The notes: generated by a model not told the origin, from the sequence alone. A DNA stretch of 64,000 nt from an uncultured candidatus Porisulfidus sp. (GCA_965215765.1 OZ244118.1:2415801-2479800), one strand, 5' to 3'; shown: positions 24,414 through 64,000, numbered from the stretch's first letter. Numbers and translations are program-made.

Positions 24414-27400
24414 TCAGCGAACCATACCGCCCAGGAACGCTCTCAGGCGCAATTTCTTGACGTGATGCGGGCCGGGTCTCGGCGTTGTCGGGATCTCGGG
24501 ATCCCAGTTGATAAATTGACTCATCCCTGGCAACTCAGCCACGCTGTCCCGAGGGAATGCCCGGACTTCGTACGCAACACCACCCTGCAGCCCCGTAAAT
24601 TCCGTCCTGACAGCTCCCCCGGGCGTCGGCATCGCAACAGACTGTTCCTCTATCAGTTCTCCGTACGAAAGCAGTTGTACCCGATACCCCAAGCCGAGCA
24701 ATATTCCGTCGACCGGGGCTCCAAAATCAGCATGATCCGCAGTGCGTCCGTAGCCATCATTTCCCGAATACTGCAAGTGTACCTGCACACGACCATTCGC
24801 CTTATGCATCAGCTGCATGGCCAATGTCCCCTCAAGAACGTTGAGCAAAGTAAATGTTGCCGTGCTCATCGCGCCCGTTCCGGCACGGTTGACTGCCCGG
24901 AGCGAATAGCGTATCTGATCTCCTCCTGTGTGCTTCTTGCGCAGCTGCACCAAGGCATGGACTGACAACACATAAGAAGTGGCGGTTCCCTCAACGGGGT
25001 AGCTTTTTCCGTCCACGGAAAGCTGGTAGATGTCTATCGTCGCCCTGTTGCTGCTCGCCGCTTCCCAACTCAGGTTCACTCGATCTGCGGATTCCCATCT
25101 GGCATGCAAGCCTGAAGGTCTGCCAGGCACCGCTATGGTGCTGAACGCATCCCTGTTTTCGGACGCTTGGGCAGGCACTCCGACGCCCGCCCGGTTGCGT
25201 GCATAGACCTGTAACGAATAGCTTCTCTTCGGCAGCAAGTCGGTGATCTCAATCTCGGTGTCAAAAGCACCTGCCGAGAAAAAGGTCTCGGTGCTGCGTC
25301 CTGCGGCACTCACCACCACCACGTAGCCAAAACCGGAACCTGCAACGCGATCAGGAGAAGTCGCAAGCGCATCACCCGCCAGGGGAGCGCAATCGTCATG
25401 TCCCATGATTGCCAATACCAGGCGCGCAGTGGTTTGACCGGGCACAAGCTCCGTTACCGTCGTCGCGCCAGGGAGACTGGGCAAATAGAAGTGACCGGCT
25501 GCCTGATAGCCAGCGACATCTCCATGCACGGCGCGAAGACGGTACGGGTGGGGGCAAGCCTCTTGCTTGTTTTTCCGAAACCCGGCCAGAAAATCTCCGT
25601 CAAAGTCAAAAGTCGGAGCTGTGACCTCCCGTATTGTTCCTGCCAGCTCAAGTTCGTAGGAATCAACCGCTGAACTTCCCGCCGCCCACGTGAAGCGCAG
25701 ATGATCCGGAGATTCCCAGCTCACCGCCAAATCAACCGGTGCGGCAGGAATGTCGGCAAGCGCACGCAGCAAGGGCAACGTGCGGGTATTGCCAAAATGC
25801 CAGGCTCCCGGTTCCCAACCGGCATAAGTCGTAGCACCTGCGCATCTCTGCCCCGCCGCAGTCGGGCAACGCAACTGGGTCAGAGTGCGAGGTGAAGAGC
25901 CATCCGCTGAGCCATTACCCACCAAAGATGCCTGTGCAGACACGGGTGCGTAACTGCGATCAATCACCGCATCCGGAGCAGAATAACCCGCCAGACTCCC
26001 GGTGCTGCCCGATTCCCCATCAACCGAGTTCACCGCATAGCTGTCCTGTATGCGGCGGATATTGTTTCCGACCAACCCCCCGATGGAGAAATGACCCCGC
26101 ACCTCACCGAGTGCATAGCTCGCATGGACAGAACCGGCGTTGTTGCCCACCAGTCCGCCAACACGGCTATCTCCGCTGACCGACACGTCGGCATAGCTGT
26201 AGGCAATGGTGCTTCCGCTGTAGCCGACCAGACCGCCGGCGCGCGAGCCGTTCACAGCGATGGCCGAACCTGTCGCGTAACAGTGCAAAATCGTGCTTCC
26301 CAGACTGTAGCCAACCAGACCGCCAGCATTGCCCCGCCCTTCACCCAAGACGCGCACCGCCGCGTCGGCGCTGCTGTGCAAAATAGCGGCTCCCAGAGCC
26401 AGTCCGGCCAGTCCGCCGGCAGACTCAAGCGCGCTTACTTGCGAAGCCCTCACCGTGTTGCCCACGACCCGACCTTTTGCTTTCACATAACCAACCAGAC
26501 CGCCGACGTACCTGCCCCCGTCAACCTCGGCACTGGCACCACTGTTGATCAGCAATCCTCCGTTGCCACCCGCCAGCCCGCCAATGTTGACCCCGGCTCT
26601 GTTGCCGGAAATCTGTGCGGACTTCACGACGCTGTTCATGACGGTTCCGTCGTTAAAGCCGACCAAAGCCCCGACGCTGTTTTTCCCTTTTACCCACGCT
26701 TCAACGAGCACCACCCCCTTGGCGATCCCGTCTTCTGCAAGCCTGGAGAACAGGCCAATCGTGTTCGTTTCCGGACGGTTAATGTACAGAGCAGAGATTT
26801 GTCGCCCTGCCCCGTCGAAAGTGCCTGAAAAAGGCTCTATCGGATGAAAACCGGCACCGCCTGACCACCCCCGACTCGGGCTGCCGTCAATGTCTGCCAC
26901 CTGCACATAGTGAGCGTACAGATCAGAGCGCGCATCCTGCAGTTGGCACAGCGTGGCAATTTGCCACGGGTTGGTGCTGCTGCCGTCACCCGATGCACTC
27001 TTCAGACCCTTGCCGGCGCATTCCGGAAAGCGGGTCACCGTCCGGATCGTTGACGGCGATCCGGTGCCCACCGAGTTATGGGCGAAGGCTTCCAGCCGAT
27101 ATTCAAAGGCACTCTTAAGCTCCGCAAATTCCATCGTGACCGGGTTCAGAGGATTCCCCAGCGGAATGTCGCGTTCTTCAACCAGCTCCCCGGACGCATA
27201 CAGGCGTATTCGGTAAGCCAGGCGCAAAGCCATGGCTTCCACTGACGCCGCGTAATCAGCGTCAACCGGCTTGCGACCGTAGCCGTCATTGGCAGGGGCT
27301 GTAAAGCTGAGTCTCAGCGTGGTGATCCCTGGCACCACGCGTACATCGGTCAGAGAATCAGGAACACCCAGCAGGCGCACGGAAACACGGGCAGCTTCGC

Positions 27401-61934: not shown

Positions 61935-64000
61935 TCAGCGAATCATACCGCCCAAGAACACCCTCAGGCGCAATTTCTTGACGTGATGCGGACCAGGCCT
62001 CGGCGTTGTCGGGATCTCGGGATCCCAGTTGATAAATTGACTCACTCCTGGCAACTCAGCCACGCTGTCCCGGGGGAATGCCCGGACTTCGTACGCAACA
62101 CCACCCTGCAACCCCGTAAATTCCGTCCTGACGGCTCCCCCGGGCGTCGGCATCGCAACAGACTGTTCCTCTATCAGTTCCCCGTATGAAAGCAGTTGTA
62201 CCCGATACCCCAAGCCGAGCAATATTCCGTCAACCGGGGCTCCGAAATCAGCATGATCCGCAGTGCGTCCATAGCCATCATTTCCCGAATACTGCAAGTG
62301 TACCTGCACACGACCATTCGCCTTGTGCATCAGCTGCATGGCCAATGTCCCCTCAAGAACGTCGAGCAAGGTAAATGCTGCAGTGCTCATCGCGCCCGTT
62401 CCGGCACGGTTGACTGCCCGGAGCGAATAGCGTATCTGCTCTCCTCCTGCGTGCTTCTTGCGCAGCTGCGCCAGGACATGGCCTGACAACACATAAGAAG
62501 TGGCGGTTCCCGAGACGGGGTGGCTTTTTCCGTCCACAAAAAGCTGGTAGCTGTCTATCGTCGCCCCGTTGCTGCTCGCCGCTCCCCAACTCAGGTTCAC
62601 CCGATCTGCGGACTTCCACCTGGCTCGCAAGCCCGAAGGTCTGCCAGGCACCGCTATGGTGCTGAACGCGCTCCTGTTTTCGGATGCCTGGGCGGGCTCC
62701 CCGGTGCCCGCCCGGTTGCGCGCATAGACCTGTAACGAATAGCTTCTCTTCGGCAGCAAGTCGGTGATCTCAATCTCGGTGTCAAAAGCACCTGCCGAGA
62801 AAAAGGTCTCGGTGCTGCGTCCTCCAGCACTCACAACCACCACGTAGCCAAAACCGGAGTCTGCAACGCGATCAGAGGAAGACGCAAGCGCATCACCCGC
62901 CAGGGGAGCGCAATCATCATGTCCCATGATCATCAACACCAGGCGCGCAGTGGTTTGGCCGGGCACCAGCTCCGTTATCGTTGTCGCGCCCGGAAGACCA
63001 GGCAAATAGAAGTGACCGGCTGCCGGATAGCCAGCGACATCTCCGCGCAAAGCGCGAAGACGGTACGGGTGGGGGCAAGCCCCCTGGCTGTTTTTCCGAA
63101 ACTCAGCCAGAAAATCTCCGTCAAAGTCAAAAGTCGGTGCTGTGACCTCCCGTATTGTTCCTGCCAGCTCAAGTTCGTAGGAATCAACCGCTGGACTTCC
63201 CGCCGCCCACGTGAAGCGCAGATGATTCGGAGACTCCCAGCTCACCGCCAAATCAACCGGTGTGGCAGGAATGTCGGCAAGTGCGCGCAACAAGGGCAAC
63301 GTGCGGGTATTGCCAAAATGCCAGGCTCCCGGTTCCCAGCCGGCATAAGTCGTGGCACCTGCGCATCTTTGCCCCGCCGCAGTCGGGCAACGCAACTGGG
63401 TCAAAGTTCGAGGTGAACTGCTGCCCGTCGAGCCATTGCCCACCAAAGCTGCCTGTGCAGACACGGGTGCGTAACTGCGATCAATCACCGCATCCGGAGC
63501 AGAATAACCCGCCAGACTCCCGGTGCTGCCCGATTCCCCGTCAACCGAGTTCACCGCATAGCTGTCCTGTATGCGGCGGATATTGTTTCCGACCAGTCCC
63601 CCGATAGAGAAATGACCCCGTACCTCACCGAGTGCATAGCTCGCATGGACAGAACCGGAGTTGATGCCCACCAGTCCGCCAACACGGCTATCTCCGCTGA
63701 CCGACACGTCGGCATAGCTGTAGGCAATGGTGCTTCCGCTGTAGCCGACCAGACCGCCGGCGCGCGAGCCGTCCACAGCGATGGCCGAACCTGTCGCGTA
63801 ACAGTGCAAAATCGTGCTTCCCTGGCTATAGCCAACCAGACCGCCAGCATTGTCCCGCCCTTCACCCGCGACGCGCACCGCCGCTTCGGCACTGCTGTAC
63901 AAAATAGCGGCTCCCAGAGCCAGACCGGCCAGACCACCGGCAGACTCAAGCGCGCGTACTTGCGAAGCCCTCACCGTGCTGCCCACGACCCGACCTTTTG
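61935..64000 (-). CDS. Giant GLUG/FN3 paralog 4, C-terminal about 688 codons. The ORF is open to the window end and the gene continues beyond.
   Basis: About 95% identical at the protein level to the C-terminal 680 aa of paralogs 1-3 ('...FINWDPEIPTTPRPGPHHVKKLRLRVFLGGMIR'). Confidence 0.85.
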   Translation of the reverse strand, partial: KGRVVGSTVRASQVRALESAGGLAGLALGAAILYSSAEAAVRVAGEGRDNAGGLVGYSQGSTILHCYATGSAIAVDGSRAGGLVGYSGSTIAYSYADVSVSGDSRVGGLVGINSGSVHASYALGEVRGHFSIGGLVGNNIRRIQDSYAVNSVDGESGSTGSLAGYSAPDAVIDRSYAPVSAQAALVGNGSTGSSSPRTLTQLRCPTAAGQRCAGATTYAGWEPGAWHFGNTRTLPLLRALADIPATPVDLAVSWESPNHLRFTWAAGSPAVDSYELELAGTIREVTAPTFDFDGDFLAEFRKNSQGACPHPYRLRALRGDVAGYPAAGHFYLPGLPGATTITELVPGQTTARLVLMIMGHDDCAPLAGDALASSSDRVADSGFGYVVVVSAGGRSTETFFSAGAFDTEIEITDLLPKRSYSLQVYARNRAGTGEPAQASENRSAFSTIAVPGRPSGLRARWKSADRVNLSWGAASSNGATIDSYQLFVDGKSHPVSGTATSYVLSGHVLAQLRKKHAGGEQIRYSLRAVNRAGTGAMSTAAFTLLDVLEGTLAMQLMHKANGRVQVHLQYSGNDGYGRTADHADFGAPVDGILLGLGYRVQLLSYGELIEEQSVAMPTPGGAVRTEFTGLQGGVAYEVRAFPRDSVAELPGVSQFINWDPEIPTTPRPGPHHVKKLRLRVFLGGMIR

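Follow-up and report, generated by a model that had tools for sequence, protein, structure and literature searches.

The precursor of Lys-C (Protein Data Bank (PDB) entries 1arb, 4nsv and 9omd) is arranged as a signal peptide, a propeptide, a chymotrypsin-type catalytic domain and a C-terminal extension, the last of which is short (<200 amino acids, aa). A right-handed β-helix made of GLUG repeats with an N-terminal cap is found in the streptococcal and Gemella IgA1 metalloproteases of family M26 (6xjb, 7uvk) and in BACOVA_03286 of Bacteroides ovatus (3n6z). The Vibrio cholerae proteases VesB and VesC, which are exported by a type II secretion system, combine a Sec signal and an S1 protease with C-terminal non-catalytic domains, and VesB bears a C-terminal sorting tail. 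The locus described here is a head-to-tail array of giant genes, the products of which resemble each of these systems in part. It lies in a stretch of 64,000 nucleotides (nt) from an uncultured candidatus Porisulfidus sp. (GCA_965215765.1 OZ244118.1:2415801-2479800). This whole stretch is referred to as the window, and coordinates are counted from its first letter.

Eukaryotic-like proteins have a role in the interaction of sponge symbionts with their hosts. The literature (for example, PMC11706023) discusses FN3-containing proteins among the eukaryotic-like proteins of sponge symbionts, and FN3 domains are common to those proteins and to the giant proteins of the array. The array probably represents a tandemly amplified family, specific to its lineage, of giant multidomain proteins that are secreted by a host related to sponge symbionts; each protein is built, in order, from a signal peptide, a pro-protease, four modules and a tail. 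We infer for these proteins a function as host-matrix protease or adhesin.

Organization and Divergence of the Array

According to the open reading frame (ORF) listing, positions 24414-64000 are filled by four co-oriented, head-to-tail paralogs on the minus strand:

24414..34910, minus strand: G1, intact, an uninterrupted ORF of 3,498 aa
35407..45664, minus strand: G2, ORF split into 35407..38106 and 37979..45664, with one inserted base at about 38034; 3,419 codons after correction
48422..58670, minus strand: G3, ORF split into 48422..52405 and 52125..58670, with one inserted base at about 52421; 3,416 codons after correction
61935..64000, minus strand: G4, the 3' 2,066 nt of a fourth paralog, with a frame that is open to the window edge

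An earlier note on this DNA had described four giant tandem minus-strand paralogs, of which one was intact, two were frameshifted and one ran off the window, and both the ORF layout and the alignments bear this out. The same note assigned about 40 kb to the paralogs. The array of that length is real, but intergenic stretches of 0.5, 2.8 and 3.3 kb make up part of it.

A three-way alignment of G1, G2 and G3 gives a copy-to-copy DNA identity of 90-92% overall, that is, a divergence of 8-10%. The three genes are separated by approximately 20 insertions or deletions, all of which are multiples of three except for the two single extra bases in G2 and G3, neither of which lies in a homopolymer or simple repeat. 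Once its single extra base is removed, neither G2 nor G3 contains a further stop codon, and the pairwise ratio of nonsynonymous to synonymous substitution rates (dN/dS) is 0.45-0.48 overall. Based on the lack of other stops and on this ratio, G1-G3 have diverged as coding sequence. Since the rest of both frames is open and the ratio is this low, the disruptions of G2 and G3 are either very recent or sequence errors. Divergence is not uniform along the genes. The identity profile of G1, G2 and G3 is mosaic, and the highest dN/dS values (range 0.6-1.1) are found in the N-terminal protease region and the first GLUG tract; in this tract the ratio is about 1 and the copies differ by 90 and 156 bp.

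The N-Terminal Protease and Its Propeptide

The first 520 residues of G1 contain three segments:

aa 1-38: signal-peptide-like N-terminus, judged by eye
about aa 100-220: Lys-C-type propeptide-like domain, from profile matches
about aa 270-500: S1 protease, with a triad of H309, D356 and S449

The N-terminus of G1 (MKEAGFRF...WRKWLLVGVSIITSSSFVFG followed by QDQ) resembles a Sec signal peptide by eye, consistent with the signal peptide proposed in the earlier note. The remainder of the region was probed with two profiles, a close-family profile (A1) and a broader profile of 25 sequences (A2). Profile A1 retrieves 1,033 proteins at E≤1e-3 from 1.84 billion representatives, and the distant matches score above the cut-off for Pfam Trypsin_2 or Trypsin in the aligned region. 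When A1 is aligned to eleven of these distant members with hhalign, the probability is 99.7% (E=1.8e-25, 324 columns), and the TAFH, GDWAIVRL and GASGS motifs fall on the His, Asp and Ser motifs of the family. The corresponding side chains H309 (TAFH), D356 (GDWAIVRL) and S449 (GASGS) are invariant in G1-G3 and in the relatives P0001-P0003. Furthermore, profile A2 matches Achromobacter protease I (1arb) in the PDB with E=3.5e-49 and the Lys-C structures with E values of about 1e-47. By these profile methods, the protease is predicted to be a divergent member of the Lys-C/Achromobacter protease I branch of the S1 family.

The profiles also bear on the segment that precedes the protease. Positions 92-200 of A2 match the Lys-C propeptide chain 9omd_I (E=3.6e-5), and in the hhalign comparison aa 116-220 of G1 align with the propeptide domain of the distant members. 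Consequently, the N-terminal domain of roughly 250 aa, to which no function had previously been assigned, is predicted to be a Lys-C-type propeptide instead, as it matches both the Lys-C propeptide and the distant pro-proteases.

The giant proteins and the Lys-C precursor are thus alike in the order of signal peptide, propeptide, chymotrypsin-type catalytic domain and C-terminal extension. Profile comparisons reveal homology in both the propeptide and the catalytic domain and align the His-Asp-Ser triad, but identity is very low and the relationship is detected by profiles only. In contrast to the family consensus, the Cys that follows the catalytic His is a Leu in G1. The Asp that confers Lys specificity on Lys-C, at what we take to be its position, appears by eye not to be conserved in the A2 alignment. 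A further difference is the size of the C-terminal extension, which in G1 comprises approximately 3,000 aa of GLUG/FN3 modules.

The GLUG/FN3 Modules and the C-Terminal Tail

Pfam matches over G1 are dominated by Glug (E=6.7e-70) and fn3 (E=4.5e-24), and the fn3 match recurs after each of four Cys linkers (E=7e-6, 5e-4, 2e-5 and 1e-15). A weaker match to Peptidase_M26_N (E=1.7e-6) is also present; no M26 metalloprotease catalytic domain was found in G1 with Pfam, the Peptidase_M26_N region alone being matched. Motif mapping and the conserved end of the protein define the following features:

aa 532, 1437, 2102 and 2647 of G1: four module caps (DP[YW]Q..)
about aa 1176, 1838, 2383 and 3015 of G1: four Cys linkers (..C......C....Y.GW....W.FG)
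24414..24452, minus strand: C-terminal tail of G1, with equivalent ends in G2-G4 and in the related loci L001-L008

Module 1 includes 15 Glug stretches in the Pfam search. The structure of module 3 was modeled with AlphaFold2 (AF2) on 52 aligned sequences, and the predicted local distance difference test score (pLDDT) exceeds 90 over the β-helix (aa 1-230). In Foldseek, this β-helix matches 3n6z (E=8e-8) as well as 6xjb and 7uvk, the latter two with root-mean-square deviations of 2.8-3.9 Å over approximately 280 columns, and the rest of the module matches tandem FN3 pairs. The Cys linker corresponds to a conserved end-cap in the consensus of other GLUG proteins. Each module is therefore an IgA1-protease-type GLUG β-helix followed by a Cys-containing cap and FN3 domains. 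The GLUG and FN3 assignments of the earlier note are confirmed by these searches for all four modules, except that it gave every module two FN3-like domains; the final FN3-like stretch is approximately 459 aa long, twice the length of the other three and more than two domains would occupy.

The comparison with the M26 IgA1 proteases and BACOVA_03286 rests on the shared GLUG right-handed β-helix with its N-terminal cap (Foldseek E=8e-8 to 1e-4), and in both the M26 enzymes and the giant proteins the helix belongs to a large secreted protease. The giant proteins differ in that a serine protease is located N-terminal to the helices and in that the helix module occurs four times, alternating with FN3 pairs. 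The GLUG part on its own is widespread in hypothetical proteins annotated as "GLUG motif-containing" in many phyla.

The C-terminal tail (LRLRAFLGGMVR in G1) is conserved as LRL[KR][VA]FLGGM[VI]R, 12 residues, in every member of the family. It is preceded by a variable linker, its codons differ synonymously and it has the lowest dN/dS of the gene. It may serve as a sorting or anchoring signal. Approximately 30 nt located 3' of the stop codon are conserved as well. A degenerate DNA pattern for the tail gave no match in JGI metagenome contigs.

Relatives, Distribution and the Question of Decay

The family has few known members. A word-index search of 5.8 billion proteins with the N-terminal 560 aa returned only three relatives, all from ENA metagenome assemblies, and full HMMER scoring of the 1.84 billion representatives returned 29 proteins at E≤1e-30. 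When one genome per species was scanned, relatives were found in a single record, OZ243039.1, which is the closed 1.92-Mb chromosome of a gammaproteobacterial Ca. Oxydemutatoraceae metagenome-assembled genome. Three loci of this chromosome together carry at least six copies, several of them split; the labels L002, L003, L004 and L008 refer to related loci in it. Intact copies are present at L003 (3,258 aa) and L008 (3,254 aa), while L002 and both copies at L004 are split. Two further loci are informative: the L006 contig contains three intact tandem copies (3,296, 3,341 and 3,262 aa), and L007 contains a fragmentary array.

Identity among the paralogs of the window (90-92%) exceeds their identity to any copy outside it (≤88%), which fits either lineage-specific amplification or concerted evolution. 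Based on these relatives, the nearest of which all come from metagenome assemblies resembling Ca. Oxydemutatoraceae, the host is predicted to be a gammaproteobacterium close to the sponge-associated Ca. Oxydemutatoraceae. Oxydemutator, the named genus of Ca. Oxydemutatoraceae, was described from a sponge microbiome (PMC11685487). No report of the protease/GLUG/FN3 architecture or of 10-kb tandem paralogs was found in the literature, including reports of GLUG with FN3 in symbionts. The array, which the earlier note could not place in any named system, does not belong to one. The exact products of G1, of the G3 N-terminal ORF and of one of the mini-ORFs described below are not on record in public data.

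The split copies raise the question of whether the genes are functional at all. Under one explanation, the array consists of remnants of a decaying gene family that is being lost from a reduced symbiont genome and of which no member functions. The frameshifts of G2 and G3, the split copies at L002 and L004, the fragmentary array at L007, a decayed GLUG fragment at 8899..9273 and an overall dN/dS of about 0.47, which would indicate relaxed constraint, are all consistent with such decay. This explanation is nevertheless unlikely to account for the family, as the 3,498-codon frame of G1 is open throughout, the three copies at L006 (3,262-3,341 aa) are intact, and L003 and L008 retain an intact 3,258-aa ORF and an intact 3,254-aa gene. 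Furthermore, all indels other than the two extra bases are in frame, and both the triad and the C-terminal tail are conserved, the tail with synonymous codon changes.

Promoter-Like Motifs and Leader Repeats

The 5' ends of the genes are associated with a promoter-like motif and with copies of a leader unit:

35099..35110, minus strand: promoter-like motif TTTTGTACAATT of G1, with a terminator-like hairpin just upstream (35163..35146)
47360..47371, minus strand: promoter-like motif upstream of the G2 leader array, with a hairpin at 47424..47407
60743..60754, minus strand: promoter-like motif upstream of the G3 leader array, an exact 12-mer
34691..35074, minus strand: leader unit, single copy at G1, with about 164 nt of 5' untranslated region (UTR) plus the first 73 codons
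45445..47337, minus strand: 377-bp leader unit, 5.0 copies, running from upstream into G2; the four upstream copies have an ATG and an 80-codon ORF
58451..60720, minus strand: 377-bp leader unit, 6.0 copies, running from upstream into G3; of its five upstream mini-ORFs, one has a 2-nt deletion

The 12-mer TTTTGTACAATT, which contains the extended -10-like sequence TGTACAAT, is found at 35099, 47360 and 60743 on the minus strand and nowhere else in the window. There is one such motif per complete gene, following closely on a terminator-like hairpin, outside the repeated unit and approximately 205 nt before the ATG. The core GTA(C/T)AAT is present in 13 of the 13 aligned upstream regions, related loci included; of these regions, only L003 has lost the extended -10 TG. 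The proposal that this is the promoter rests on the conservation of TTTTGTACAATT; a consensus promoter scan of 23600-24500, 34600-35500 and 45300-48500 returned no minus-strand site, and thus none upstream of G1 or G2.

The 377-bp unit consists of 164 nt of 5' UTR and the first 73 codons of the gene. Unit G2_3 is 99.7% identical to unit G3_4, which shows that the leader arrays were copied together with the 13-kb segment. At the related loci, a single leader is present and there is no leader array. A mini-ORF of 81 aa in leader copy G3_3 (59554..59799, minus strand) is identical to the public predicted protein P0031, and P0019 and P0028 are related to it; from these public mini-ORFs, leader duplications appear to occur in other assemblies of the lineage. 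The 5' UTR of about 200 nt (34911..35110, 47172..47371 and 60554..60754, minus strand) is conserved, with 84% mean column identity, and this holds across species between which N-terminal protein identity is only 48-68%. No Shine-Dalgarno-like motif precedes the ATG (GCATTCACAATG). No RNA family from Rfam matches anywhere in the window.

The extra leader copies could be functional: they might tune the expression of G2 and G3, as upstream ORFs (uORFs) or as a long 5' UTR, or encode small secreted peptides of 80 aa. All nine retain an ATG and an open frame of 80-81 codons, the UTR part has proportionally fewer variable sites than the coding part (29/164 versus 51/213) and is conserved across species, and similar mini-ORFs exist as public predicted proteins (P0019, P0028 and P0031). 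A functional role is nonetheless improbable. The leader peptides show no clear sign of selection, since variable sites are spread over the codon positions (16/13/22 of 71) and the coding part varies more than the UTR. By our estimate, intact frames in nine short, young copies are not improbable by chance. In addition, the relatives manage with a single leader, and RNAalifold detects only weak covariation (-0.88 kcal/mol) among 13 aligned 5' UTRs.

The 3' Relic Gene and Junction-Spanning Repeats

The segments downstream of the giant genes, described in the earlier note as a conserved spacer and 3' repeats belonging to a shared flanking repeat architecture, translate across stops to PDDEXK_3 (GxxExxY; Pfam PF13366, E=6.6e-15). 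Stop codons break up all of the copies, and none has kept the middle of the domain, so that these segments are a relic rather than a gene:

23755..24413, minus strand: relic PDDEXK_3 downstream of G1, with a single copy of the repeat unit
35202..35406, minus strand: shortened relic downstream of G2, with one repeat unit and the C-terminal part deleted
47540..48421, minus strand: relic PDDEXK_3 downstream of G3, the 5' part present as a 181-bp repeat in 2.8 copies (47806..48309)
60900..61934, minus strand: relic PDDEXK_3 downstream of G4, the 5' part present in about four copies (61188..61901)

The 181-bp unit thus occurs once after G1, once after G2, approximately three times after G3 and approximately four times after G4. 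The dead PDDEXK_3 gene lies downstream of each giant gene and accompanies it in related genomes, and its repeat is present in differing copy numbers downstream of the giant genes in L001, L006 and L007.

Tandem repeats of the same type are located at other gene junctions in the window:

314..908: 149 bp, 4 copies, at a housekeeping gene junction
7527..8926: 464 bp, 3 copies, comprising the 3' 350 nt of a HAD phosphatase gene and 114 nt downstream
14474..15330: 214 bp, 4 copies, comprising the last codons of thiS, the spacer and the first 28 or so codons of thiG
16773..17387: 140 bp, 3.2 copies, and 173 bp, 1.9 copies, at a housekeeping gene junction

With the repeats of the giant genes included, eight tandem arrays make up approximately 8.8 kb of the 64 kb. 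The pilT neighbor of the giant gene in OZ243039.1 (L002 20714..21552) has its 5' end in two tandem copies of 245 bp. A decayed fragment of a GLUG tract (8899..9273, plus strand) lies on the opposite strand just after the HAD repeat array; it has 78% protein identity to aa 2275-2355 of G1 and contains internal stops.

The genome of Ehrlichia ruminantium offers the closest described precedent, as variable tandem repeats are found in its non-coding regions (PMC10710844, citing Collins 2005 and Frutos 2006). Both genomes contain many repeats with a period of hundreds of bases in or across intergenic regions, with copy numbers that vary between related genomes. The two differ in phylum and lifestyle, and the units described here clearly take in gene ends (the 5' ends of the giant genes, the 3' end of thiS, the 5' end of thiG and the 3' end of the HAD gene). 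The distribution of the repeats in the window suggests that the leader and 3' tandem repeats originate from a genome-wide tendency to duplicate segments across gene junctions.

This distribution also bears on the proposal of the earlier note that the array is a dedicated, possibly variable, surface system. Under this proposal, recombination or phase switching would act on the paralogs and repeated leaders and thereby alter which variant of the surface protease or adhesin is made. Gene conversion is suggested by the mosaic identity profile of G1/G2/G3, the first GLUG tract evolves with a dN/dS of about 1 and with 90- and 156-bp differences between copies, the numbers of leader and 3' repeats differ between copies and genomes, and the broken copies could be donor cassettes. 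Set against this, a promoter-like motif, a start codon and a full ORF are present at each complete copy, with no promoterless cassette. No switch element is present either: the frameshifts lie outside simple-sequence tracts and no recombinase or invertible repeat was found in 24 kb of flank. The leader arrays are absent from the loci of relatives. The thiS-thiG, HAD and other junctions bear the same repeat type, which undercuts the proposal. The repeats around the paralogs are real, but with one promoter-like motif per gene and the same repeat type at housekeeping genes the idea that they form a dedicated architecture is not supported, and a variation system is distinctly improbable.

That an assembler expanded a single gene is suggested by the highly repetitive region, the uncultured source and the lack of the exact products elsewhere on record, but the chance of this is minute and it is effectively ruled out by the 8-10% divergence, the many in-frame indels, the differing numbers of leader and 3' repeats and the tandem arrays in independent assemblies, including the closed 1.92-Mb chromosome.

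Neighboring Genes and a Possible Export Route

A type IV pilus-like cluster (17427..23754, minus strand) is co-oriented with G1 and located downstream of it:

22639..23754, minus strand: PilT-like ATPase, directly downstream of G1
21149..22645, minus strand: PilM/N-like protein with a PilN domain, 498 aa
20580..21152, minus strand: ORF of 190 aa with no family match
18633..20219, minus strand: PilQ-type secretin
17427..18626, minus strand: short PilB/GspE-like ATPase

The link between this cluster and the giant genes is one of position only. The PilT neighbor is conserved beside L002, a 68%-identical copy in OZ243039.1, the other flank of which is occupied by a tyrosyl-tRNA synthetase gene. 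This arrangement is a positional hint, and only that, that the cluster may have a role in exporting the giant proteins.

If the secretin cluster is the export route, the giant proteins and VesB/VesC would be functional analogues, as they are alike in possessing an S1 protease, a Sec signal and C-terminal non-catalytic domains. At the level of sequence, only faint matches to these proteases are obtained (4lk4, E=0.13; 6bqm, E=0.15). Unlike that of VesB, the tail of the giant proteins has no transmembrane segment and is not a GlyGly-CTERM, and the neighboring genes, among them one for a PilT ATPase, form a type IV pilus-like cluster.

A polymorphic toxin or two-partner secretion system was also considered and rejected, as the part that varies and carries the enzyme is N-terminal, conservation is highest at the C-terminus and there is no adjacent gene for a transporter partner.

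Proposed Mechanism

The architecture of the giant proteins suggests the following mechanism. First, the giant protein would be exported by Sec. Next, the propeptide would aid folding and then be removed, as in Lys-C. The rod of β-helices and FN3 domains would hold the protease on the extracellular matrix of the host or other cells, or target it there, and passage through the outer membrane would perhaps take place via the adjacent secretin/ATPase cluster. The array itself would have arisen by duplication of a segment of 11-13.5 kb that contains the promoter, the 5' UTR, the ORF and the dead PDDEXK_3 gene. G2 and G3 would have been disabled very recently by single-base insertions, unless these are sequence errors, and individual copies would frequently be lost. 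The leader and 3' tandem repeats would be a by-product of genome-wide duplication of short segments across junctions rather than a function of the system.

Several results weigh against this reading. For the protease, the only direct Pfam match in the region is Trypsin_2 with E=0.12, NCBIfam returned no match to the N-terminal region, and the close-family profile returned no protease or other relevant match in the PDB. The AF2 model of the N-terminal 520 aa, built on a 6-sequence alignment, has a mean pLDDT of 33.9, so the fold is not directly seen. The chymotrypsin-fold protease of the earlier note therefore stands as an S1-type domain recognized by profiles and by its conserved triad, and the direct Pfam search and the structure prediction fail to add to it. 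The signal peptide was called by eye only, and the dN/dS of the protease region is 0.6-0.8. For export, no PilC or pilin gene was found in the window, and the other copies in OZ243039.1 are located beside housekeeping genes rather than a secretin cluster, with L003 following sdhAB. Finally, breaks affect two of the three complete copies in the window and several copies in OZ243039.1, which keeps decay a live alternative.

A bolder version of the amplified-family reading would make the giant proteins a novel class of host-directed protease fibers of sponge symbionts, with a tail that is a novel sorting or anchoring signal read by the secretin/PilT/PilB cluster, junction duplication an active process like that of Ehrlichia ruminantium, and the multi-uORF leaders a means of altering the expression of the paralogs. 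We regard this combination as a long shot.

Implications

Public protein data contain hardly any members of the family, which has a narrow taxonomic range and combines known parts anew. If expressed, the giant genes would be among the largest in a genome of approximately 1.9 Mb. In the related closed chromosome, at least six copies account for approximately 3% of the sequence, which argues for an important role in host association. The high density of junction-spanning tandem duplications may, in turn, bear on genome dynamics in this lineage. A degradative serine protease joined to adhesin-type and eukaryote-like domains makes these proteins candidates for the remodeling or holding of host matrix by a sponge symbiont.

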